DNA of 54,423 nucleotides, from positions 62,001-116,423 of the forward strand of contig NW_026938289.1 of assembly GCF_032062105.1 (NCBI RefSeq). The letters are read 5' to 3'. Origin of the DNA: Saccostrea cucullata (lineage: Eukaryota). The translations under genes were made by a program, and so were the position numbers. Under the pieces are notes generated by a model. It saw only the letters and a list, made by a program, of their open reading frames with translations. It did not search any database and was not told the origin of the DNA. Shown here one piece after another: positions 30,006-49,702 of the stretch; within the stretch, counting starts at the first letter, position 1, and the number at the start of each line of letters is the position of its first letter.

Positions 30006-31220
30006 TTAACGTAGGTGTTGCCGGATGACCAAGCGTCTTATCCATTCTATTTGAATACTCAATAAAACACAATTCCAAAAAGGTTTCAAATGTATATTCT
30101 GGTTTTAAAATTACAATGATTCACTGGAATCGTACACGTGGTGTTCCTCGTTGCGCACACTCCCCTCTCGGGTTTTGGGACCTCAGAAGCTGAGTGTCTG
30201 TATCTAATAAACTTTTGCTTAGGAAATATTGTTGAAATTATCTCAAATTTAACTGGCTAAGGATGGAATTCACACATTTACAAAATTATCAAAGACCCGT
30301 GCATGTTCTAGCGTGACCACACTGCTCAACGCGTTATCGGCAACTCGGTTGTTATCGGATACTCGGTGCAGGAAAAAACAATGCAAAGAAAACGTAGGTG
30401 ACTTTAAATTTCTTCATTCAATGATAATTATTTACTTCTGCAAACAAAGTTTGTGATTTTTGGCAGATAAATGATAATACTTTCAGCGGTAAAAAGCACG
30501 CTCCAAATCACACTCTTTCAAAAGATCTACAGCTCTTTAAAATAAAATTTAATCAAATTTTCTGAATATGTCAACATATTTTAGTCTTTGTAGAGGTCAG
30601 AATCAATTTGTTTTATAAAATAAAGTGATTTATTAACTATATAGACAATCATAAACCTTTAGATAAGCAGACATATATCAAAATTCAAATTATGGTTTCT
30701 TTTACGGGCATTTGAAATGTTTCGTTGGGCAAAAACATGTTATCGGAAACACGGTTGAAGTTGCCGGATAATTCGGCTTTTCACGGGTGCAGGTTATCGG
30801 AAACCTAGGTTAAAAAATTTCTTTCTGTTTCAACAAAAGATTAAAAAAAAGACGAAATTCCATAAATTCTGCGGTCAAGGCTTTCAGTTCTTAAAGAATA
30901 ACAATAATTTGAATTTCAGCAAACGAAGTTTGTGATCTATGACAGATAATTGATTATACTTTCAGCAGCAGAAAGCACAAATCGTATCAAAAGATCTACA
31001 GCTCTCTCATATAATATTTTATCTTTAAAAAATTCGGATTATGTCATCACAATTTAACTTTTGTAGAATTCAAATTTAATTCATTCTATCAAACTGGTAG
31101 GGGGTATATTTATTCTCTGGACAATCAAATCAAGCCCCCCCTGGCCCCTCGGATACTACGCCCCTGACTATCCTATCTGTTTAATCATTTTCTCATGTTT
31201 TCCATTCAAGTGAATCTCTT

Positions 31221-32995: not shown

Positions 32996-34010
32996 AAACA
33001 AGCAAATTCAAAGAATTTTGGTCCCCCGCATTCGGTATCTTTGTGGGCAAGATATCATTTTTAAGGTCAAGGTTAATAGGTCAAAGTTTTTGGTATCCCA
33101 TGGAAAGTCTTGCCATAAAGAATACATATATTTAAAATATGAAAGTCCTAGTTTCTACCGTTCAAAAGTTGTGACCAAGGTCAACGTTTTTGAAAAGTAG
33201 TAAAAACTCTAAGGTCAAGGTCAAAGGGTCAACGTTCTTGGCATGCAATGAAAGGTCTTCTCACAAGGATTACATACGTGAAGTACGAAAGCCCTAGCCC
33301 TTACCGTTTAAAAGTTATGGTCAAGGTTAAAGTTTTTTCAGAAGTACGTAAATCTCCAAGGTCAATCCAAAGGTCAAAGTTGTTCATATCCAATGAAAGG
33401 TGTTGCCTCAAAGAATACATGTGTGAAATATGAAAGTCCTCGTATCTAGCGGTCAAAAGTCGTGACCAAGGTTATAATTCTTAAAAAGTAGTTCAACGTC
33501 AAGGTCAAAAGGTCAAAGTTTTTTGTATCCAATGAAAGGTCTTCTTACAAGAATTAAATATGTAAAGAATGAAAGCTGTAGCCCTTACCGTTCAAAAATT
33601 ATGGTCAAGGATATAGTTAAATATATGTACGTAAATTTCCAAGGTCAAAAGGTCAAAGTTCTTGGTATTCATTGAAAGATCTTGTCACAAAGAATATATA
33701 CCTGGTATGTGAAATATGAAAGTCCTAGTGCCTACCATTCAAAAGTTATGGCCAAAGTAAGTAAAAGTTTGGAATTTTTTAATAAAAGTAGTTGAAGCTC
33801 CAAGGTCAAGGTCAAAAGGTCAAATTTGGTGGTACTCAAAGAAAGGTCTTATCACAAGAAATACACATATGGTATATGAAAATTATAGCTCCACTAAATC
33901 AAAAGTTATGGGCCAGGTTAAAGTTTTTGTGACGGACGGACAGACTGACGGACCGACGGACAGACAAATGAGATTTAATGTCCCCTCGCTTTCGCGAAAG
34001 CGGGGGACAA
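32996..34010 (+). mobile_element. Helentron/HINE-like element carrying a ~145-bp satellite array
   Basis: AACAAG start; about six monomers with AAGGTCAAGGTCA motifs; (GACG/GACA)n microsatellite at ~33930-33965; 3' palindrome CCCCTCGCTTTCGCGAAAGCGGGGG. Confidence 0.75.
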
Positions 34011-35911: not shown

Positions 35912-38900
35912 TCAAAGTCTACTGAGATAATCAGCACCCTGGTTATCTTTCCCTCTGATTGCAATAACCCTATACCTATAAGACTGAAGACTAAGCGCCC
36001 ATCGCATCACTCTGGAGTTGATCACTTTAGTCTTGTTGAGATAAATCAAGGGTTGATGGTCTGTCTCAATCAGAAATTCTTGTCCATAAAGGTAACGCTG
36101 GAATTTGTTGATTGCCCAAACTATGGCCAGACATTCCTTTTCAATGGTTGAATACTTACATTCGCTCGGTTTCAGTTTACGGCTAGCGTATGCTACTGGA
36201 AGTTTCAACCCAATCTCATCGTCAAGCTGCAAAAGAACGGCACCAATACCACCATCTGACGCATCTGTCTGAAGAATGAATGGTTTAGCAAAGTCTGGAA
36301 GTTTCAAGATAGGTGAATGCATTAGCATTTGCTTAAGAGTATTAAAGGCGTTTTCCTGTGGTTTATCCCAAACTATTTTGTTAGGAGCGCCTTTCTTTGT
36401 GAGATCTGTAAGAGGCAAAGCAATTACAGAAAAATTTGGTACAAATTTCCTGTAAAAACTTACCAAACCAAGAAAAGATCTAAGCTGGCGTTTCGTCTCT
36501 GGTCTACTTGCGTCTTGAATAGTCTTTACCTTTTCAGGATGTGGTTTTAGTCTATCCTCACCTACAATGTGTCCAAGACATTCTAAACTGCTGTACCCTA
36601 TTGAACATTTTGATGGTTTGGCTGTCAAATATGCATCTCGCAACTTACTGAAGAGTTCCTCGAGTATCTTCAGATGCTGGTCTAAATCAGGTGTGAATAT
36701 GATAACACCGTCAATAAAATTATCAATGCTCTGCATACCACAAAGTAACTTACGCATAAGTCTTGAGAATGTCGCTGGAGCTGTTACTAATCCAAACGGC
36801 ATAACTCGGAACTGAAACAAACCTTTGGATGTTTGAAAGGCTGTCTTTGGCTTTGAGGATGCAGTAAGTGGAACTTGCCAGTAACCTTTGGACAAATCTA
36901 GTTTTGAAAACACTTTGTGATTAGCAAATTTTGAGAAAATCTCTTCAGCGTTAGGCATTGGTTCAGCGTCAAATTGAGAACAAGAGTTAATAGCCCTAAA
37001 ATCTACACAAAAGCGAAACGTATTGTCCTTTTTCTTAACAAGTACAATTGGTGAACAATAAGGACTGTCTGAGGGCTCAATCATGTTCAACGCAAGCATT
37101 TTCTCTACCTCTTTATCCACAGTATCTCTCATTGCAAATGGTACTGAGTACGACTTACTTCTGATTGGTTGATCTGAATTAGTTTTGATATCATGCTCAA
37201 TCAAGTGAGTGCAACCTGGAACGTCAGAGAGAACATCTGAGAATTTATTCAAGAGTGAAATTACTTTCCTTCGGTCATTACCTGACAGTTCTGGATTAAC
37301 ATCGACGCTTTCTGGTCCTTCCGCATTCCCTGAACATGGAATATCATCTGTCTCTTCCTGTTCATCTGCCGTACAATCAATCACAGCGGAGCTGACAATT
37401 GCGTTGACCTCATGATCTAAGTCTTCTTGAGCAGTGTTCCTGTCAAGGTATTTCTTTAACATGTTGATATGAAATGTTTTCAACTTACCTCCCATGCTGA
37501 TCTGATAATCTACCTTGTTTACCTTCTTTATTATGATAAAGGGGCCCTTCCACTGCAGTTATAATTTATTGGAATCTGTGGGTAAAAGAACCAAAACCTT
37601 ATCACTTACTTTCAAATGTCTAGCTCTTGCTGATTTGTTGTAGTATTTTGTCTGTTTTTTAGCTGCCTTCTCCAGGTTTTCTCTCGCTAGTGCAGCTGTT
37701 GATTCTAGACGCTCTCTTAAGTCCAATACATACTCGTAAGTTGTTCTTACCTTAGGATCTTCGACATCTCTTGTCCACAGTTCTTTGAGGATACTTACCG
37801 GTCCCTTGACATGCCTTCCAAAAACTAACTCAAACGGGGAAAACCCTGAACTCTCCTGTGGGACTTCTCGGTACGCAAATAGAACTGGATTTATATATCT
37901 GTCCCAATCTCGGGGACAATCTGCAGAAACTCGTTTAAGCATTTGTTAGAGAGTATCATTAAATCTTTCGACCATTCCGTTCGTCATAGGATGATAAGGT
38001 GTTGTGATTATCTGCCTGACTGAAAGCAAACGACTTACCTCTCTCATGAGTGCTGATTTGAACTGACTACCCATGTCACTTAAGATTTCGTCAGGTATAC
38101 CCATCCTTGAAAAGATCTCCAAGAGTCCCTCCGCAACTCTCTCAGTTTCTATTGATGCCAGAGGAATGGCTTCTGGATACCTAGATGCGAAATCAATTAA
38201 AGTGAGTATATACCTGTTTCCTTTATCTGTGACCGGATGGATTGGTCCAACAATATCTACTGCGACTCTTTTGAACACTTCGTCTATGAGAGTCATCTTC
38301 TGCAAAGGATGTCTGGTAACTCGGCCTTTGTGCACTGTTCTCTGACAAATATCGCACGGGTGACAGAAACGCTTAACATCAGACTGTATTCCGGGCCAAT
38401 AAAATTCTGTAAGAATCCTAGAAGTTGTGCGACAAGTTGCTAAATGTCCTGACATAATGGATTCGTGCGCAAATTTCATTACAACCTCTTTAAATTTCTG
38501 TGGTACCACAAGTTGAATAAAAAACTTACCGTTTTCATCTGTTGATTGATACTTACTGTAGATTAATCCGTTTTTCAGAAACCAGCGTATTTTACCTCTC
38601 CGTTTCAGTACCTCCTGGTCTGCTGCTACCCATTGTCGAATCTTTCCAAGGGTTTCGTCTTTCTCCTGTGCGATCTTAATATCATCTGGTCTTATATTGT
38701 CCTTCACAATCTCTGGGACTTGAAGTTGAGGATATGGTTTCTGCTTTTTCTTGACTTGTTGTCGAGTCTCTACTGCATGTACTTCAGTCCACAGCGGATC
38801 TGGATCATCAGGCGATCTTACCTTATCGATGTTGCCGATGATGAGATCATAAATAGGGTTATCCATGCACCAAGCGTCAAAAGTTCCTGTAATATATGGC

Positions 38901-40258
38901 ATATCGATAGAAATAGTAGCTACAGGTACCTTGACTGAAGATCCATCTGCTAGAATGCAGGTTTGAAACTTGTTTCTTATGAAATTATCCTCACCAACTT
39001 TGCTTTTTCTCACAACTATACCTGTACATCCCGTGTCTCTCAAAACTGTTACGGGCATACCTTCGGCATATCCAGCTGAAATAGGTAAGTTATTTTGCTT
39101 CTGATAGCAAGATGAAGAGACCTTAGTTGAAAAGTCACCTGCGTCAGAGTTTGTTACATTGCTTGTTGGTAAAGAAGAAACAAAACTTACATGTACCTTG
39201 GCCACGGTTTCATCTTTTGCAGTTTCCTCATTTATAGAATTCTCCGATTGCTTATGAGTAACTGAACTAACCTTTGGCTTGTTTCTGCATTCTGAAGCTA
39301 TATGGCCTATATTATGACATACATAGCATCGTCTTTCTGATTTTGGAATAAATGCTGGCTTAGCTTGATATTTTCTCTCACCTTTACTACTTCTGTGACT
39401 GTCATGATCGTGTCGATCCTTCTTTTGTGGTCGGTAATCAATGCTTTTGTCGCTAGTGAATGTTACAGCATTAGCCAACCTTGCTTCCCGGTATTGATCT
39501 GCTAAACAAGCCATGTCTTGAATGGATTTTGGTATTCGCTCTTTTAGGAAAAGAGTTAAATCCCTATTACAAACATGCAAAAACTGATCTCTTAGAACCA
39601 AATCAAACAAAGCTTCAAAAGTTTCAGCAATGTTTGCCATTCTCAACCATCTTTGCAGATAATTAATAAGTCTCACAGAAAACTGAATGAAAGTCTCACC
39701 TTCTTCTGGCCTGGAAGATCTAAATTGTCGCTTAAATCCATCGTCAGTAAGGTCATAGCGCTTAAGTAAAGCTAATTTTAACTTATCGTAGTCAAGAGCT
39801 TCCTCTGAAGGTAATAGAGCATACACATCTAATGCCTTACCTTTAAGAAGTGCGCTGAGATTTGTAGCCCATGTTAACTTAGACCATTTCTGTGTTTCTG
39901 CGTATCTCTCGAATCTCCTAAGATAACTATCCATGTCATCTTTTCCATCTGCAAATGCTGGAATCTTTGGTCCTTTCATTTTTACACTAACCTCATCACT
40001 TGGATCACTAATCTTTAGTTTCCCTTTCTCCTGGAGTACTTCCATTTCAAATTGGTGGGAGATTTGTTGAAGTTTCAATTCTTTGTCATACTTCTTTTTC
40101 ATTCGTTGATACTCTAATTCCTCTTTCTGTCTTTCTCTTTCTGCTCGTCTTTCTTCTCTTTCGATGTCCTGTTGGGTTCTTACAAATTCTCTCAAATCAT
40201 CTTCCTTATAACCTAATGATACCCCATAGTCAATGAGTTCTTTCAACCTTTCAGCCAT
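35912..40258 (-). pseudogene. Gag-Pol (capsid/SCAN-like, CCHC, protease, integrase, RT, RNase H) with two nonsense codons
   Basis: CYVCHNIGHIASEC; LRDTGC; H..GH...CDIC; VAVDIVGP; GMVERFN; FCVDFR, LDLSKGYWQ, MPFGL, FIDG (second catalytic Asp lost); QTDAS, IEKE, TDH. The three ORFs share one frame, with TAA at 37946 and 37559. Confidence 0.93.
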
Positions 40259-43200
40259 GATTAAAGGATACACAAAAGTCAAGAGTACAAAAGTAAAGAT
40301 ACAAACAAAATCAAACTTGGGTGAAACAACTCAAAATTTCCGAACATACCTAGAGTGGTATTCACCTGAGTCTGTGTCCAACATACATGCACTTGGGTAC
40401 GCCAAACATGCACATATTTTATCTAATATACACATTTTACACTGAAACCACTTACTACTTACACAACACAGACACACAACTTACTGAAGTGACTTCTTAT
40501 CAGTTTGGAAATTTTGGAGTTTCAGCAGTGATTGAACCTCTGGGTCCAGATTAACTCTCTACATAGCATATCTACAATACAAAAGTACAGCATATGATTT
40601 TTTTTTTTTAATACAAAAATTAAATTAAAGACAGATTGATAGGAAGAAGACAGGTAGAAATCAAATTGTGTTTTATTCTCAATTCAATTTGAAGTTTAAT
40701 TTTCACAAAACAAATAATATTCTCTTTATGATATCAATAAGTTTTTTAGCTAGTGTTGTTCTGTGATTCTCCCCAGTCCTTGTTCCTATTTTGTTCTTGA
40801 ACCAGATGACTGCTGCAGCTTTAACTTCGCTGAAGTTGGAGCCAAAGTGTCATCATCTGTCTCTCATCAGAAGTTTGGAGCTAGTTGCTAACAATAATGA
40901 AAAGAGACACAAACACAACTTTAAATTTAAGTAACAATTCAGAGGAAAAATCCAACGTTGAAAGGAATGTTGAAATAAGAAATGTAGTTGTTCAGCTGCT
41001 GTTGCCGGAACCAAATTATCGCTAACAATGTTGCTGGACAATGAATGATACAGTTGCTGCTTTTGTCATAGTTGTAGATGAGCCGTTGAATGAGATACAC
41101 GAATGGATTAGCTCTCTATACAGAATCCGTTTTTCCTTTAGGAATCGTATCCCTGGAAGAATCCTATCCCACTTCTGACACCATTGTTGCCGGATGACCA
41201 AGCGTCTTATCCATTCTATTTGAATACTCAATAAAACACAAGTCCAAAAAGGTTTCAAATGTATATTCTGGTTTTAAAATTACAATGATTCACTGGAATC
41301 GTACACGTGGTGTTCCTCGTTGCGCACACTCCCCTCTCGGGTTTTGGGACCTCAGAAGCTGAGTGTCTGTATCTAATAAACTTTTGCTTAGGAAATATTG
41401 TTGAAATTATCTCAAATTTAACTGGCTAAGGATGGAATTCACACATTTACAAAATTATCAAAGACCCGTGCATGTTCTAGCGTGACACGGCAGGAAAAGA
41501 GGGTGATTTACTCAACCGTGCCTGTTAAATAGCCTCGAACAATTGAGGCTCCATAAAGGTTAAAATAGTAGAGGTCACCTACAGGATAACTGAGTATTAT
41601 ACAAATAAAATCATACATGTAGAGTAAATGTGACAGTAGGTCGCGGGTTTGCTGACGTCATTAAAACTGGGTACGCAATTTATATGATTTATATAACTTT
41701 CTTGTGCACATCTGATTATGACGTCACGGTGAGAAAGGGAAAATTTCAGTACATAATCTAGCTGTAACATTTGTTGAAATAATAGTTAAGTGTAACATAT
41801 TCATAGAACATGCTGAAGTTATAAAAATAATAAAGGCTTATTTTGATTCGAGTGACCATCACTGAAAGTGTTAGAAGCGTTTCATTACGTATCATCAATC
41901 GCATCTTCTCGGGTCTATTCTGAGAGCACATGTACTTGTTTCGGAAATAAATTTTAACCCTTGTATCATGTATGATTTATAAATATTAAATACCGGTATT
42001 AAATGAGTATAATTTTAAAACAGGTTATCTAACTCCGAATTACACTCGATACCCCCTCCTCAGAAACGCACTCATTTTATTGTACACTTTCAGTGGAAAT
42101 GCACTAAACAAACTGTTTATTAGCATTGTCTTCTACGATAATTTATCTACACAACCACATATGGCATGCATGTTTTGTTTTTTATTTATCTCCGTAAACA
42201 GCGTCAAAACTTTGAAGGTCGAACTCAATTATGAAACGGTATGTGCTAATCTCAGACTAATGTATATAAAGGTTGATCACAAATTAAAAACTGCTAAGGC
42301 ACAGGTCTCCGGGGTAATCTTAATGAAACATAAACTAAATTATATACCGGGTATATTATATATACATTTTTTGAGCGGCATTGACCTCTTGTAAATAACC
42401 ACAGGCACGTAGGATATGACCCCCTCCCTCCTTTCCATTTTTTACTTCCTAACGCCAGGGATGAGTAAACTTTTTCCATTTTTTTTAATTTTTACTCCAC
42501 CCTATATGTGCACGTTGATTTAAGGTAGTTCTATACTCGGCACTAAATGGGCTCAATCTTTAAAAATCTGCTTTTATAAGATAGACATACATCCCAGCAA
42601 TGGATAGACACAAGAAAAATTATATGTCAACATGTTCACTTTTCCGCTATAGCCTATCAAGTATATACCCCGAAATGTAAAATACTGAAATTTTACCTAT
42701 CTTAGATTTTGTTGTATATAAATTAATTTAAGTCTACATATTCAACTTTAATACCCAAAATAGAGTAGAAACATGTTATTAAACAATAAAATATCATTGT
42801 TTTGCATGAATTATTATAAATAGATGAACTTTGTTAGGCTATTGTATCAAAATCTGATGTGAGAAGATATGCTTCCCAGGACAATCTTGGTCATTTAAAA
42901 AAAATTATGGACTCAAACTTCGTAAATTTGCATTATTTTTACTAAATTATATTTAAGAAAAATAATAAGCTTAAAAAATTATATGTTGACGCATTAATTT
43001 TCGTGGTATGAGGTCTACACTTAAGGTACCCCCCTACTTTCTTTCTTCCAGAAGTCATGAATTGTCACATATTTCTGTAATACTGTTAATGTTTGAGTGT
43101 ATACTTGTATTTACAAGCTTGTGCATTATTTAAAACAATAATCATACACACCCAAAACCTATTGTCCCTAAAATTTATCTTATTTTACTCGAAAAATAAA

Positions 43201-44467
43201 ACACACTTGTCTTTAAATTGCAGACGATGAAAATGAAAGTAATTCACTGATTCTCAGAAACTGGATGATTTTGTCACAGAAAGTAACAAAGTATGCTGCA
43301 AGTGAATCAACTTTTGTCAAATACTTATTCAAAAGATAATTTTGCATTGGGGTTCGTGGGTAAGCAGGTTGGGGGAGGGGGTATGTGTTTTATGCAATTA
43401 TTATTATCTAAAGTAAATTTTGTAATGTTTGATTAGTAAAATTAATAAGTTTTCAAATCGTAGTCATTACTTTTCTTCCGAATTATCACTATAAGCTTCA
43501 ATTTGGCCACCGACAACAGTTGCCTCGATAGTTTGATACAGTCATGTTCTGATGTAGCATGTCTATGGTCCGTGTTTTCGACGCTGCATATCAAACATGC
43601 ATCATTCACAGAAATATTGTTTTATTACCTAATTATTTCTGTCAACCGAAAGTTGTTCCCAGCCTTTTCTTTTTAATTAATTTATCCTTAAACTGTACAA
43701 TATGTGTTTGTTGACGCGACCGACTTCGAGCAAAATCGTTACCGGATATTTAAAATGCTAAGTAAAAGTCAAACCAATATAGTATAGTATTTTCTACCTG
43801 TATCTACATATTAGCTGTGATGGCGGAATACACAGGGAAAACACTATGAGATAAAATCCGCTCTTTATTGCGTTAGTGGTCGCCAATAATATGTAACAAT
43901 TACACAAACTTACAGAGGACAATATAACACGTCTGGTCGGGTCGACGATCAGCATGGAAGAGAGTGACGATTACGTCACAGCCCGCATCACTGCCGGCCA
44001 CGTGATCGGAGGCTGCTAGGGAATTCGTCCCTAGCGCCCCTAGGACCACTACATTCCTCCCCATTTTGTAAGAGGGCGTCCCAGCCCGTAAAGTAATTAC
44101 AATGGGACAAACTATAATATACAAATAATAAAAATTAACTCCTAGCAGGGCCTATCTTACATACATACACATGCATTCACACAATAATAAACATTAAACA
44201 TTACTGTCTCTATAATAATAAAAATCACAATTAACAGTTCATATCACACAGTCACTCATCATCCGCGTCGTCTCGGAACACCACGAGGTCCATCGTTGTA
44301 AACATCTACCAAGTGGTCCAACGTTGATACATCTGGATAGGCTCTGCTCGGTACATCTAAAGGCGACATCTAAAGTGCGGCATAAGTCATCAGGACTATC
44401 TGCTCCCAATTCAGGTAAGTTCAGGTAAGTACATCCGAGTTACCAGTCTCGGTCACGGCATACTGGT

Positions 44468-45199
44468 TCAAAACGGTCCCCTCAACTGAGGTCCAAAGAA
44501 CACTCTGAAGTTCCTAAAAACTAGGCCCGCCAGCAAAGCGACATCCTGTCCCCTCGCTGCGGCAACTCTCCTGTACACCTCCCTGATGTGTCTGGGACCC
44601 ATCGGTGCTTCAACCCCACAAGGAAATTCAGGACTGTCCGACTCGACCAGCAGTCGGTCCATAGGAATAGCTCTAACTCCCGACAACTGGGTCGCGGACA
44701 TCTCCGCGATCCGACCTCCAACTCCAAAGAAAACGGGTCGGCCAGACTCCACCCAGAGTCTCACCTGCTCCGGTCCACCTGTGAAGTCACGGACAAAGAT
44801 AGGTACCAGGATTGGAACAAACATCCCGTCCAACAGTGTAAGGCAATCTTGGGTAGGGACGCGGCCCAAAGGGTCGTCCGCGTTCCCCCTCAAAACCAGT
44901 ATCATCGCTGTACTGAACGACGCCTGGCGGAAGAACTCCGCCAGCACAAACCTCTGACACCTCTGGGTAGACGGACCGGAATAATCCAATCCTATTTCCC
45001 CTAGCACAAAGTTCCTATTTCTACACACTCCCACAATGCGGGCTACATCTGCTTGTGTAATCAAGTCCGCCAACCCAGGGGAAATCCCCTGAGCTACGAC
45101 CCAATGCGGATTACCAACCTCCGAGAAAGGTTCCTCTCGGAAACCATATGCTACATATCACTTCCTAAGCGGAGATTCCGCTCTCGAAGACAAACTCAT
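44468..45199 (-). CDS. TatD-fold (TIM-barrel) protein lacking the canonical His ligands; in-frame TGA at codon 14
   Basis: LGEIGLDY, IPMDRLLVESDSP and N.R.FF motifs. The frame extends upstream of the listed ORF to an ATG at 45199 via VVAQGISP (GxHP position), with TGA at 45160-45158. Confidence 0.82.
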
Positions 45200-45360
45200 C
45201 AATCTTCTTAGACATCACTAACGAACCTACAAAGACATGTAAGTTTATCAAACCAATGCCTAACTACTAACTAATTCATGTACAAGTCTACCTAAACCGG
45301 ATCTTAACCTACTAAAACTTGCACATGCTTCCGCACCCCTGCGGAAACCTTACTAACTAA

Positions 45361-48300
45361 CTAACCAGTGTCGACTATGACCGGACTACATTCGGGGCAG
45401 ATATACTGAGGTACAGATTTAGCATAATCCTCACTTATACCCACACACCCTGGGTGAAACCAGTCCCGACAATTGTCGCACTGCACCATCATTCCCTTGG
45501 GATTAGATTGTAAACAAACATAATACTTCTTAGCTCTAGTTCCCTTAGTGGCTCTAGGTCTCTTGGGCGATTGGGGTTGTTTATTCTGGTCTAATCTTTC
45601 CCTAACCCGTTTACGAGTACCCATATATGGACCTACTGACTCCGCTGGTTTGGGGCTAACTATTGAGTGACCCCCACTCCCCGGGCTCTCAGGACTTAAT
45701 CCTGACTCTGTGGACCCCAGCGGTGTAACCACGTTATGTATATGGGAACTATCCCCATCTCGGGCTACTGACTGTCCGGGCAACCTATTTTTGTAGTTTA
45801 TTAACCATTTAGGGAGTTGCCTGGACTCGCACCTTTTAAGCTTGTCATGGTGCATAACCTTGACCTCGCGCCGAGATTTTACAACAAATATTGTGTCTGA
45901 CTTGGTTTCTATTATTATCCCAGGACCCCTCCATACTGACTCTACCTTTTTTCCCGCATTGCGGCGCCAGTAAACCAAATCTCCGACCTTGAACTTACTG
46001 GTACGGACCTTAATGTCATGCGACCTTTTCATTGCCTTTTGCGCGACTTTTAGTTTTCCGCGGGCAATATCGTGCGCTCTCTGAACATTGTCTTCTAGAT
46101 CACGTACATACTTGTCCACCTCACCCTCCTCCCCATTTTGAAAAGACGTGGAAGGCGGTGGGGCGAACATCAAGGTTGCTGGGATATTTACTTGATCGGC
46201 AGGGACTGCTTTCCCTACCTTAGTTCCCTTCTCAACAATATGACTTTGGTCTGTCATATTTAAAATGCACAGCTTGGCTTTGTTACCTGCGGTATTGTAT
46301 GTCCGCGAAGCTACTATACCAGGCGGAAATATGCTGGCTGGCTCCAACATAAACTCTGGCATATCGGAACTGTGGGTACTCTCGATGATCTGAGCAGTGT
46401 GCGGGGGAATCCGCACTCTGCGGGCTGAAACCGCATCGAGTACTGGTACTGACTCATCAACACTCATAACAAATATAGTGTCGATGCCTTTAACCCTTAA
46501 AGTTCCGGCTTCACAAGAAATCTCTACACCATGCTTACGCAGGAAATCTATGCCTAGGAGCATCTCGTCCTGCAGAGAACCAACATAGATCGGGTGTACA
46601 AAGTCATAATCCCCGATGCGTATATTAAGACAACCGAGGTACTGAGCGGTCATACCAGCTCCCTCGCCAGCCAACCTAACATTAGTGTTACTCAAAACTT
46701 CGGGCTGCGGCCTCAAAGACTTATAAACGTCACTAGATATTATTGATATGTCGGCTGCGGTATCGATTGTCGCTCGGACCTGTTGGCCTCCAAGCTGTAT
46801 CGGAATCCGCCAAGCTCCCGAACCAGTGACTTGACTACCGGACCTGACTGACGGGATAACGTAGGTCGCGTTTACATTTGGCTCAGTGAACTTGACTTTA
46901 GTCTCATGTTTCGGTGCGCGATATCTATCCTCGTCCTCGCTATTTACTGACTTAAGGCAAGGCTTAGGGGACCCCGATCTACGCCGTCGCTGGCGGATCG
47001 GGCAATCGCGTAAGAAGTGTCCTGGCTCCTGACACTCAAAGCACACAATGGGCTTCGTCGCACTAGAGCGGCCCCTACTCGGTGACGGATCCCTCGAGGA
47101 TCCTCGCTCTACACCATGCTTACGCAGGAAATCTATGCCTAGGAGCATCTCGTCCTGCAGAGAACCAACATAGATCGGGTGTACAAAGTCATAATCCCCG
47201 ATGCGTATATTAAGACAACCGAGGTACTGAGCGGTCATACCAGCTCCCTCGCCAGCCAACCTAACATTAGTGTTACTCAAAACTTCGGGCTGCGGCCTCA
47301 AAGACTTATAAACGTCACTAGATATTATTGATATGTCGGCTGCGGTATCGATTGTCGCTCGGACCTGTTGGCCTCCAAGCTGTATCGGAATCCGCCAAGC
47401 TCCCGAACCAGTGACTTGACTACCGGACCTGACTGACGGGATAACGTAGGTCGCGTTTACATTTGGCTCAGTGAACTTGACTTTAGTCTCATGTTTCGGT
47501 GCGCGATATCTATCCTCGTCCTCGCTATTTACTGACTTAAGGCAAGGCTTAGGGGACCCCGATCTACGCCGTCGCTGGCGGATCGGGCAATCGCGTAAGA
47601 AGTGTCCTGGCTCCTGACACTCAAAGCACACAATGGGCTTCGTCGCACTAGAGCGGCCCCTACTCGGTGACGGATCCCTCGAGGATCCTCGCTCGGGACT
47701 TGATCTTCGGGTGCGGTCCTCCGAGTCACTGGAGCAATGACCCTTACCTGCATCCCAATCCGGTGACTCGGAGCGGTCCCTATTAGCGCGGCGATCAGAA
47801 CGGTCTCTGCTGGCACGGCGAGGACGGTCCTCGCTGGCACGATGAAGACGGGTTCTGCTGGCACGATCTGAGGAACGGTCCTCGCTGGCACGATAAGGAC
47901 GGTCCCTGCTGGCACGATAAGGACGGTCCCTGCTGGCACGATTAGTACGGTCCCGCGACTCCGAGCGTTCTGTGCGTGCCACCAAAAAGTCTTGGCTCTC
48001 AGAGTCTGACCGGGCGCGATAAAAACTTGAACCTGGCGACTGACTCCGGTCCCTCTAAAGCGATCGTACTGCCCTCGGACGGCGGGCTAAAGCTCTACGG
48101 CTAAGTTGATACGTTTTTACGCGTTTAATTGCCTCCTCGAGAGTTCCCGGGGGATTATTGATCAACTGTTGCCCCGCCTCGCCATCATTACACCCAAGAG
48201 CAAAACGGACAATAATTTGCTCCTGGAAAACCTCTGGCGAGGTGCCGCCACCGAACGCTTTCTGGGCGGTGTCCATCACCCTATCTCCCCATTGCTCAAT

Positions 48301-49702
48301 AGCTTCGTCCGCCCGCTGGCTGATCGAGTTAAACTCCAGCTGTGAGGCGGCTCTAAGAGAAGTCTTACCGAATCGCTCCTCCATCCGGAGAACGACCTCA
48401 CGGAAACTTAATAGCGCGCCTCGTCGCCTGAGGATGTCAAAATACTTCAGGGCTGCCCCCTCTAACGTGAGACTGAGGGCAAACAGAGAGTCGGGGTCGC
48501 TCCATTGATGGTACTCGGCAATGGTAGAAAACTTCGAGTAAAACGGACCCCATTCTACGTCCCCGTTATATCTAACCCCTTTAACCTCTGCTGGAATATT
48601 TCGACTAATACAGCTACGGGTACCCGCGGGAAGGCAACAGGCTCTGGTATGCGGTGGTCATCAGGGAATGTCCCTGTCCTGCAGTATGCGGACCCCCCTG
48701 ACTGGGCATAAACGACGGACTACCCCCTAATGCTACTGACTCCCCAACCAACCTACCATAGTGGCCAGCGCCCTGACCACTCGAGTTAGCAACACTAGGA
48801 TGCGCAGACGCTACGGGCATTGTCGCGGAAGTACCCACTCGGGTGCACCATGCAACCTGACCCGGAACCGGTGGGCCCGTGCTGGGAAGCACTGGGTAAT
48901 CGGTCCCCCCTGATGCGAAAGAACCCAGAGTTATAGTACTCGGCAACCCCGAGACTAAACTGTCATTGCCAAGTGAGGATAGGGACTGACCTTGATACAT
49001 GTGTACACTAGGACCCCCCACAGAGACAGGCATATACCCCCCGCTATGTGCGGTCACTACAGGATTACTAATAGGCACCTGCTGTCCGGGTAGTGCGCTA
49101 GGGACCCAAGGACTCCCTTGGCTACTAGTCACTACAGAGCTGCTAACAGATATCTTATGTCCGGGTAGTGCGCTAGGGACCCAAGGACTTCCCTGGCTAC
49201 TAGTCACTACTGGCTGACTGACCCTATTATCCTGCGTGGGTGGGGGTGACTGGGGCTGGCTGGTCTTCATCAACCCAGCCAACATTTGAGTAATGTTACC
49301 CAACTGGTCCCCCATACTTGTCTCCATGGACCCAACCTGTGTTGACACACCTGTAACACTGTTCCAAAGGGCGTCTATCTCGGACCCCATAGTCCTCAGC
49401 TGTTTTGACACATTGGCCCCCAGGGTATCTATGTCCCCTCTCAGGGCCCCCATATCCCGACCCAGGGTATCCACCCTCTTATTCACAGTGTCCATTTCCC
49501 CCTGGATCCGGTCTACCGCTCCCTCCAGTATGTGCTGACGTTCCTGGAGGAGGGAATGAAAAGCGGACCATCCGGGTGTTTCCCCTGGACCCTCCGAGAT
49601 AGCTCCCTGTGTAAGTGACATGTCCCCCTCCCCATACTGAGTGACATTATCCGGGGCACTCCCCCCCCTGGGGCACAGGTGTACTCGCCACACCCGGGAC
49701 AA
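45361..49702 (-). pseudogene. Gag-protease-(RT/RH/IN core deleted)-IN C-terminus-PHD polyprotein, disrupted
   Basis: Coiled-coil and low-complexity N-terminus; capsid-like YNGDVEWGPFYSKF...LEGAA; CFECQEPGHFLRDC; IDTAAD...LLGIDFL; FKVGDLVY...WRGP...HHDKLK; PHD at the end. Frameshift near 48620-48700 and TAG at 48055. Confidence 0.85.
46522..47691. repeat. 585-bp in-frame tandem duplication (zinc knuckle + protease)
   Basis: 46522-47106 and 47107-47691 look identical; CTC microhomology at the junction. Confidence 0.92.

Follow-up and report, generated by a model that had tools for sequence, protein, structure and literature searches.

To our knowledge, little is known of the third genes other than env that animal LTR retrotransposons carry, and none has a demonstrated role. 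The nearest described case is that of the bdelloid rotifer LTR retrotransposons Juno and Vesta, in which the third open reading frame (ORF3) encodes a DEDDy 3'-5' exonuclease of unproven role (PMC5408684). The excerpt of that paper notes GDSL derivatives in retroelements that are catalytically dead, and does not mention TatD. In errantiviruses and env-carrying metazoan Ty3/Gypsy elements, env is the third ORF and occupies the place between pol and the 3' LTR; it is likely expressed from a spliced RNA and is missing from many copies (PMC13524379; the excerpt of this env survey mentions neither TatD, nor nuclease, nor PHD). On the enzyme side, TATDN2 and other class II TatD proteins combine a barrel with a long N-terminal extension and have the motifs HxH-GxHP-GE-HxR-HCF-ETD (PMC10085689, PMC10711561, PMC12709183). 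One class II TatD, the bacterial QatD of the anti-phage system QatABCD, has been recruited into genetic conflict on the side of defence and is catalytically intact (PMC13434339). We found no published TatD-carrying retrotransposon in the literature searched, with supplements, Repbase and most subscription journals outside the search, and the word TatD is absent from the main text available for two surveys of mollusc transposable elements (PMC6238403, PMC10294476).

Here we describe such an element in the oyster Saccostrea cucullata. We started from a window of 54,423 nucleotides (the whole stretch of DNA analysed), where a sequence-only reading had noticed an ORF with TatD signatures in the position of env. 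As in Juno and Vesta, a captured gene with a nuclease fold occupies this position in a Ty3/Gypsy element. Unlike their DnaQ-like protein, the oyster ORF3 encodes a TatD TIM barrel together with a finger/helical domain (Pfam gives PF01026 alone in ORF3, with no DnaQ-like DEDDy exonuclease domain, and the fold is a TIM barrel), and its clade spans molluscs, echinoderms and a hemichordate, with one branch lacking the active-site histidines under apparent purifying selection. The gene resembles env in its place, likely spliced RNA and absence from many copies, but it has the fold of an enzyme and neither a signal peptide nor a clear membrane anchor. It resembles TATDN2 in its barrel, in its long N-terminal extension and, in the intact families, in its motifs, whereas the element genes are intronless, lie inside LTRs, have a finger/helical domain of their own and, in the window's family, none of the histidines. 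The latter also sets this family apart from QatD. What this work adds is a test for selection in a family without any of the histidines, an active site lost stepwise and more than once, evidence for splicing, and a probable domesticated gene.

The window's element has the LTR pair, target-site duplications, primer-binding-site-like stretch and polypurine tract of an LTR retrotransposon (Table 1). Its LTRs are identical at 262 of 272 columns, and the window contains no tRNA gene matching the primer-binding-site-like stretch. As had been read, ORF3 follows the pol stop (45361) on the same strand and precedes the polypurine tract, all within the LTR pair, and shares the higher GC content of the element (0.54 in the remnant ORF and 0.51 in the element, against 0.32 in the flanks). 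The LTRs of this family terminate in TA, not CA.

Table 1. Features of the TatD-carrying element, in window coordinates.
Feature	Position	Strand	Remark
Target-site duplication CTAT, 5' side	50370..50373	-	4 bp; 4-bp duplications in sister copies too
5' LTR	50100..50369	-	270 bp, ends TG...TA
Splice donor GTAAGT in 5' LTR	50224..50229	-	Counterpart of the donor in the run X4 joint
Primer-binding-site-like stretch	50085..50098	-	TGGCGCTGCG, directly behind 5' LTR
gag N-terminal and capsid region	48055..49705	-	Two frames (48614-49705, 48055-48657)
897-residue frame	45361..48054	-	RS-rich stretch, zinc knuckle, protease, integrase C-terminus, PHD finger
585-bp tandem duplication	about 46522-47691	-	Doubles zinc knuckle and protease in the 897-residue frame
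Junction of 2.76-kb pol deletion	46186..46193	-	Short microhomology
Branch point, pyrimidine tract and AG acceptor	45227..45247	-	11 nt 5' of ORF3 start
ORF3 natural start (ATG 45215)	45158..45215	-	In the window copy, stop at codon 17
Junction of ~1.13-kb ORF3 deletion	45154..45157	-	Residues ~20-398 gone
ORF3 C-terminal remnant	44468..45157	-	TatD barrel without strand 1
Polypurine tract	44054..44068	-	
3' LTR	43783..44053	-	271 bp
Target-site duplication CTAT, 3' side	43779..43782	-	4 bp

The frame upstream of ORF3 had been called pol. In the window copy this pol lacks RT, RNase H and the integrase core, whereas sister copies have the order PR-RT-RNase H-IN of Ty3/Gypsy. We took one undeleted sister copy (L035) as the coordinate reference for the deletions. 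Relative to it, the window misses 2.76 kb of pol, comprising these three domains (junction near 46190), and about 1.13 kb of ORF3, i.e. residues ~20-398 of 625 (junction near 45155), with microhomologies at both junctions. The element is a copy of a Ty3/Gypsy LTR retrotransposon and a double deletion derivative. The ORF3 deletion takes out the finger domain (residue 139) and the first strand of the barrel (residue 360), and the remnant is a 229-residue open frame (44468-45157, minus strand) with GEIGLDY and DRLLVESDSP. Two details of the sequence-only reading have to be revised: the start placed at 45199 is superseded by the natural ATG at 45215, in a different frame, and the reported in-frame TGA is found 5' of the junction, where its frame is not the coding one. 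The junction rules out an otherwise whole ORF with a single nonsense mutation. Splice products are ruled out as the origin of the ORF3 and pol deletions, the ends of which are microhomologies and not GT..AG. Since the first Met of the remnant is residue 85 of 229, the window copy probably lacks a folded barrel, and it probably makes no working protein.

Among 20 close copies (the window and 19 other loci), ORF3 is undeleted in nine. The 1.13-kb deletion is present in seven of the 20 (the window and six others) and deletions of 0.88-0.90 kb in four; much of ORF3 is thus missing from 11. Several of these 11 have LTRs that are 98.5-100% alike, and two deletion junctions are each common to several insertions. 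By these LTRs and common junctions, ORF3 is dispensable in cis, as would be expected if its product were used in trans. Deletions of ORF3 recur at microhomologies (L031-L050 and the window), and the 1.13-kb one occupies three places on the TatD tree.

Among the outcomes that the sequence-only reading had named as speaking against it were an ORF unique to this copy and a dN/dS close to 1 in sister copies. Sister copies carry ORF3, and in the nine undeleted ones the dN/dS of the barrel is 0.12 (p = 3e-50 against 1), a rough value, like all those given here, because the copies recombine and CpG decay inflates dS. The recombination follows from the disagreement between the gag and TatD trees. In the same comparison the integrase core has a value of 0.17, the finger domain one of 0.10 and the acidic part one of 0.44, and all 20 close copies together give 0.13 by pairwise counting and 0.19 under a codon model. 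Judged by these codon substitutions, the His-less barrel is under purifying selection. One may ask if ORF3 is a dead passenger, i.e. a captured host gene decaying within the element: much of it is gone from the window and 10 other close copies of the 20, and the RNA signal is low. This is most improbable, given that the dN/dS of 0.12 largely refutes it, that the columns of the scaffold were retained while the histidines were lost, that the splice sites are conserved, and that the same His-less state is found in a second species, Saccostrea echinata. The TatD remnants have a dN/dS of 0.30 in five deleted copies of the window's subgroup and of 0.2-0.3 in deleted copies overall. That this value is 0.30 rather than 1 is not fully explained by the non-cutting binder that we favour below; the deleted copies may have recombined with undeleted ones.

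The assignment to TatD, first made from short signatures, is confirmed by the PF01026 profile, by PDB matches and by Foldseek on the model of a sister. The window remnant matches the profile with an E-value of 1.1e-15 and 58 bits (cut-off 27); undeleted His-less copies score 51-55 bits and an intact sister 98. Searching the PDB sequences with the remnant gave eight matches, every one of the TatD family. Among named proteins, those of Saccostrea oysters are closest, and the genome search returned 125 matches among 150 scored candidates. The idea of a captured TatD in the env slot therefore stands, but the whole gene encodes a multi-domain protein of 625 residues, and the window retains no more than its C-terminal 229. 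The undeleted protein starts with an acidic N-terminus, followed by a C2H2-type finger (C-x4-C-x12-H-x4-H) and its helical domain, then by a linker and finally by the TatD barrel. The model of the undeleted His-less protein has a full barrel, and its top 15 Foldseek matches listed are all TatD-family, the best being YcfH (1yix, E 9e-11). In the intact-family model, built from the alignment of 112 relatives, both the finger/helical domain and the barrel are folded (mean pLDDT 90.7), and the barrel superimposes on 6l25 with a Z of 29.9 and an rmsd of 2.4 over 245 residues. We detected no signal peptide and no clear membrane anchor in ORF3, the N-terminal hydropathy of which is negative. Its only hydrophobic 19-mer (1.78) sits within the barrel; other families reach at most 1.24.

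We made the census of the active-site histidines on 29 close loci. The two HxH sites are L and F in all 18 loci that retain strand 1. The GxHP site is never His in the 28 loci covered (it reads S, P or A), and the LHxR site is V or A in the 28 loci covered. The HCF site is R in 26 of the 29 loci, H in two and C in one. The acidic ligands show the opposite pattern: the Glu of GE is kept in 28 of 28 loci, and the Glu and the Asp of ETD each in 29 of 29. In the window remnant the His sites are S, V and R, with the GE Glu and the Glu and Asp of ESD retained, so that the earlier readings of GISP, VLR and RDF and of the kept acidic residues were accurate. The absence of HxH had also been reported; the motif is unreadable in the window copy, where strand 1 is deleted, and its loss is real in the undeleted sisters, which read DCLWF. 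One HCF-site His codon was checked: it is CAT where 19 of 20 copies have CGT, which fits CpG decay.

The proposal that the loss was concerted finds support in a comparison with 207 intact domains, in which 24 columns are at least 90% conserved. All five His columns are changed in the window's family, against two of the 19 others (Fisher exact test p = 5e-4), and the loss is fixed across the 29 loci. A protein of Saccostrea echinata (P0002) is of the same type, with loss at the three His sites covered. Another protein of this species (P0125, LOC133189848), a 627-residue sister of the His-less ORF3, has three of the His losses in common; it keeps the other two His and is without the GE Glu and the ETD Asp. 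Since different remaining ligands were lost in the two descendants, we infer that catalysis had already lapsed or become dispensable in their ancestor. Further degenerate relatives occur in the databases (P0114, P0120, P0135, P0181, P0204 and P0216).

Loss of the histidines is true of the window's branch and not of the wider lineage, where TatD is mostly intact and presumably active. All five His are kept in 207 of 279 distinct related domains and in 183 of 226 database rows. Among the families of the same genome, the nearest (L029) keeps all ligands and is 54% identical over the remnant and 87% over RT-RNase H. By these comparisons, the loss is derived and belongs to a single branch. The term pseudo-nuclease is likely apt for this branch, even if the three carboxylates that were necessary in the mutagenesis of TatD and TATDN2 are all kept. 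The latter leave room for a remodelled nuclease, where the kept Glu, Glu and Asp would hold a Mg ion and the new Arg would help to hold the phosphate. The three residues are retained in 28-29 of the 29 loci and correspond to E91/E201/D203 of E. coli TatD and E593/E705/D707 of TATDN2, which are necessary or important by mutagenesis (PMC10711561). Moreover, single His-to-Ala mutants of human TATDN1 retain their exonuclease activity (PMC10085689), and the Arg is kept in 19 of 20 copies despite its mutable CGT codon. We rank this explanation first among the alternatives and nevertheless consider it rather unlikely: the family has lost the phosphate-binding His along with all four metal-binding ones, with L, F and V now standing in the place of three; class I enzymes without HxH still keep the other His; the sister P0125 also lost the Glu and the Asp; and the 183 of 226 database rows that keep five His suggest that they are normally needed in the clade.

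The reading we favour, with modest confidence, is that the undeleted His-less ORF3 of the window's family would be a non-cutting nucleic-acid binder aiding the element in trans. The ancestor of the clade would have captured a TATDN2-like nuclease once, and the captured nuclease would have been joined to a zinc-finger/helical targeting domain. In the intact families, ORF3 may cut R-loops, RNA:DNA hybrids or stray single-stranded cDNA of the element, aimed by the finger domain, where these structures would, if left uncleared, attract host repair or sensing. In the window's branch, catalysis would have been surrendered stepwise and the binding surface retained, such that the protein may cover these structures or compete for them with host TATDN2. 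An AP-site binder and a decoy, both put forward in the sequence-only reading, are candidate roles. Human TATDN2 degrades the RNA of R-loops, which requires E593 and E705, and its N-terminal part is required for binding, a parallel for the targeting domain of ORF3 (PMC10711561). Metal-free binding is not assured, since the catalytically dead TATDN2 E593A bound R-loops weakly (PMC10711561). TATDN1 and TATDN3 are 3' exonucleases and AP endonucleases (PMC10085689), and medaka tatdn2 protects primordial germ cells (PMC12709183). The charge of the barrel counts against a binder: the His-less one has 26 Lys and Arg, against 33 in the intact sister, i.e. it is not more basic. Intact and His-less proteins occur as natural pairs in one genome, and the need for cutting versus binding can be tested on them by plain biochemistry.

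The finger/helical domain, of ~138 residues, is a new conserved domain, predicted to bind zinc. It has no Pfam match, and its leads in the ESM Atlas are all below 0.9; structure searches with the 460-residue two-domain model gave match lists filled by the barrel. The barrel might be a scaffold for binding proteins and the finger/helical domain the active part, e.g. as an anti-silencing or chromatin adaptor. This domain is conserved like the barrel (dN/dS 0.10, rough as above), and its C, C, H and H are near-invariant, each at least 90% conserved across 112 relatives. It is absent from nine of nine host TATDN2-like proteins and doubled in L068, a stand-alone oyster gene whose barrel is degenerate (see below), and a PHD finger closes the pol of the window's branch. 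However, no partner is on record and the domain lacks a family match, and we regard the scaffold as distinctly unlikely.

A GTAAGT donor is found within the LTR in 15 of 15 LTRs aligned. Of 21 rows, 18 have an acceptor (branch point, pyrimidine tract and AG) 11 nt ahead of the ORF3 start, and the other three do not match the start motif. Across the clade, 11 of 13 ORF3s have, by eye, a T-rich AG just 5' of the first Met. In run X4, one contig joins the LTR donor to the ORF3 acceptor exactly, by a GT..AG joint that skips 7238 nucleotides; its short side has 29 letters, below the 31-letter mark of the tool, and runs X3 and X4 are guessed to be RNA. One contig of run X3 starts at the ORF3 acceptor. 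The joint is absent from three raw RNA runs, which have only 79-143 reads on 9.3 kb, on both strands, too few for ranking ORF3 against pol. Hence, ORF3 is likely read from a spliced, env-like mRNA.

The gene type is old and widespread, and likely spliced like env. Parts of gag or pol lie on the same strand in 54 of the 59 stretches fetched around TatD matches; a few could come from adjacent elements. ORF3 sits inside an LTR pair in 15 of 20 close stretches and in 15 of 39 distant ones, many of which are too short upstream. A bacterial origin or contamination is ruled out by these intronless TatD genes inside LTR pairs on oyster contigs and by the gag and pol parts around them. Oysters, pearl oyster, scallops, mussels, clams, abalone, a sea slug, Diadema and Ptychodera all contribute named relatives, and a profile E-value of 1e-30 is attained by 461 clusters (at 50% identity); these are probably elements too. 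Of the two main branches of the clade, one, to which the window's element (45361-45520) belongs, has a PHD finger at the end of pol, and the other has none there. Some members have unusual structures. Three short elements (L104, L105 and L118) have LTRs 96-98% alike, gag and the TatD gene, and no match to RT or integrase. In another (L113:4976-8212), ORF3 is in one open frame with integrase (1079 residues), and in L134:1125-3959 PR-RT-RNase H is joined directly to the last 58 TatD residues.

The three groups of the RT tree, which was built on 18 of 25 rows without the intended outgroup and midpoint-rooted, are those of the TatD tree. This agreement and the presence of the finger/helical domain in both main branches favour one old capture. 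The best tree places all element TatDs tentatively in a single clade (support 53), for which the shared finger/helical domain argues. Element TatDs and TATDN2-like proteins are separated from TATDN3 and two bacterial rows with an SH-aLRT of 94, in a tree where TATDN1 is absent and long branches meet. The element TatDs are not nested within mollusc TATDN2. Among host genes, the oyster genome has a cluster of tandem intronless TATDN3-like copies (L071, L072, L120 and L140 on G000:C14024, E 7e-95 to human TATDN3), two multi-exon TATDN2-like genes (L132 and L139) and the exons of a probable TATDN1 (L133).

The stand-alone gene L068 (G000:C18394, about 57,780-61,100) is one frame of 1104 residues, with two finger/helical domains and a degenerate TatD barrel that has lost four His and the GE Glu. 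No pol match occurs near it in the three surrounding stretches. Over its length it is 52% identical to a protein of Ostrea edulis (P0240, LOC130052597) with the same degenerate residues, and it is likely a domesticated ORF3. A single loss of the histidines for the element family and these two genes is rejected (AU test for grouping them, p = 5e-4). As far as these phylogenies go, L068 and P0240 lost their active site independently of the window's family. Taken together, the data point tentatively to a clade of Ty3/Gypsy elements in animals, ancient and so far undescribed, where a spliced accessory gene with a finger and a TATDN2-like nuclease would manage the R-loops or cDNA of the element against host repair and sensing. 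Conversion to a non-cutting binder would have occurred several times, once in a still-mobile oyster family (that of the window) and once as a domesticated gene of Saccostrea and Ostrea. This broader account, which we regard as possible but far from assured, would also explain many bivalve annotations as TatD or TATDN2.

These results carry a warning, as many bivalve gene models named TatD or TATDN2, and some entries from bacterial MAGs, are probably genes of retrotransposons. For example, four TatD proteins labelled as from Candidatus Thiodiazotropha MAGs (P0058, P0079, P0087 and P0090) match the element type, and two of them were placed in the clade. They are probably host clam DNA in the assemblies.

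The window contains other repeats. In a second Gypsy-type element (35912-40330, minus strand), the integrase precedes RT and RNase H, an order reminiscent of Gmr1-like elements, and the gag region is SCAN-like. The repeats at 30016/41185 (300 nt, 100% identical) and 35674/41495 flank the region of this element. A degenerate tandem array with units of about 140-148 bp lies at 33060-33938.
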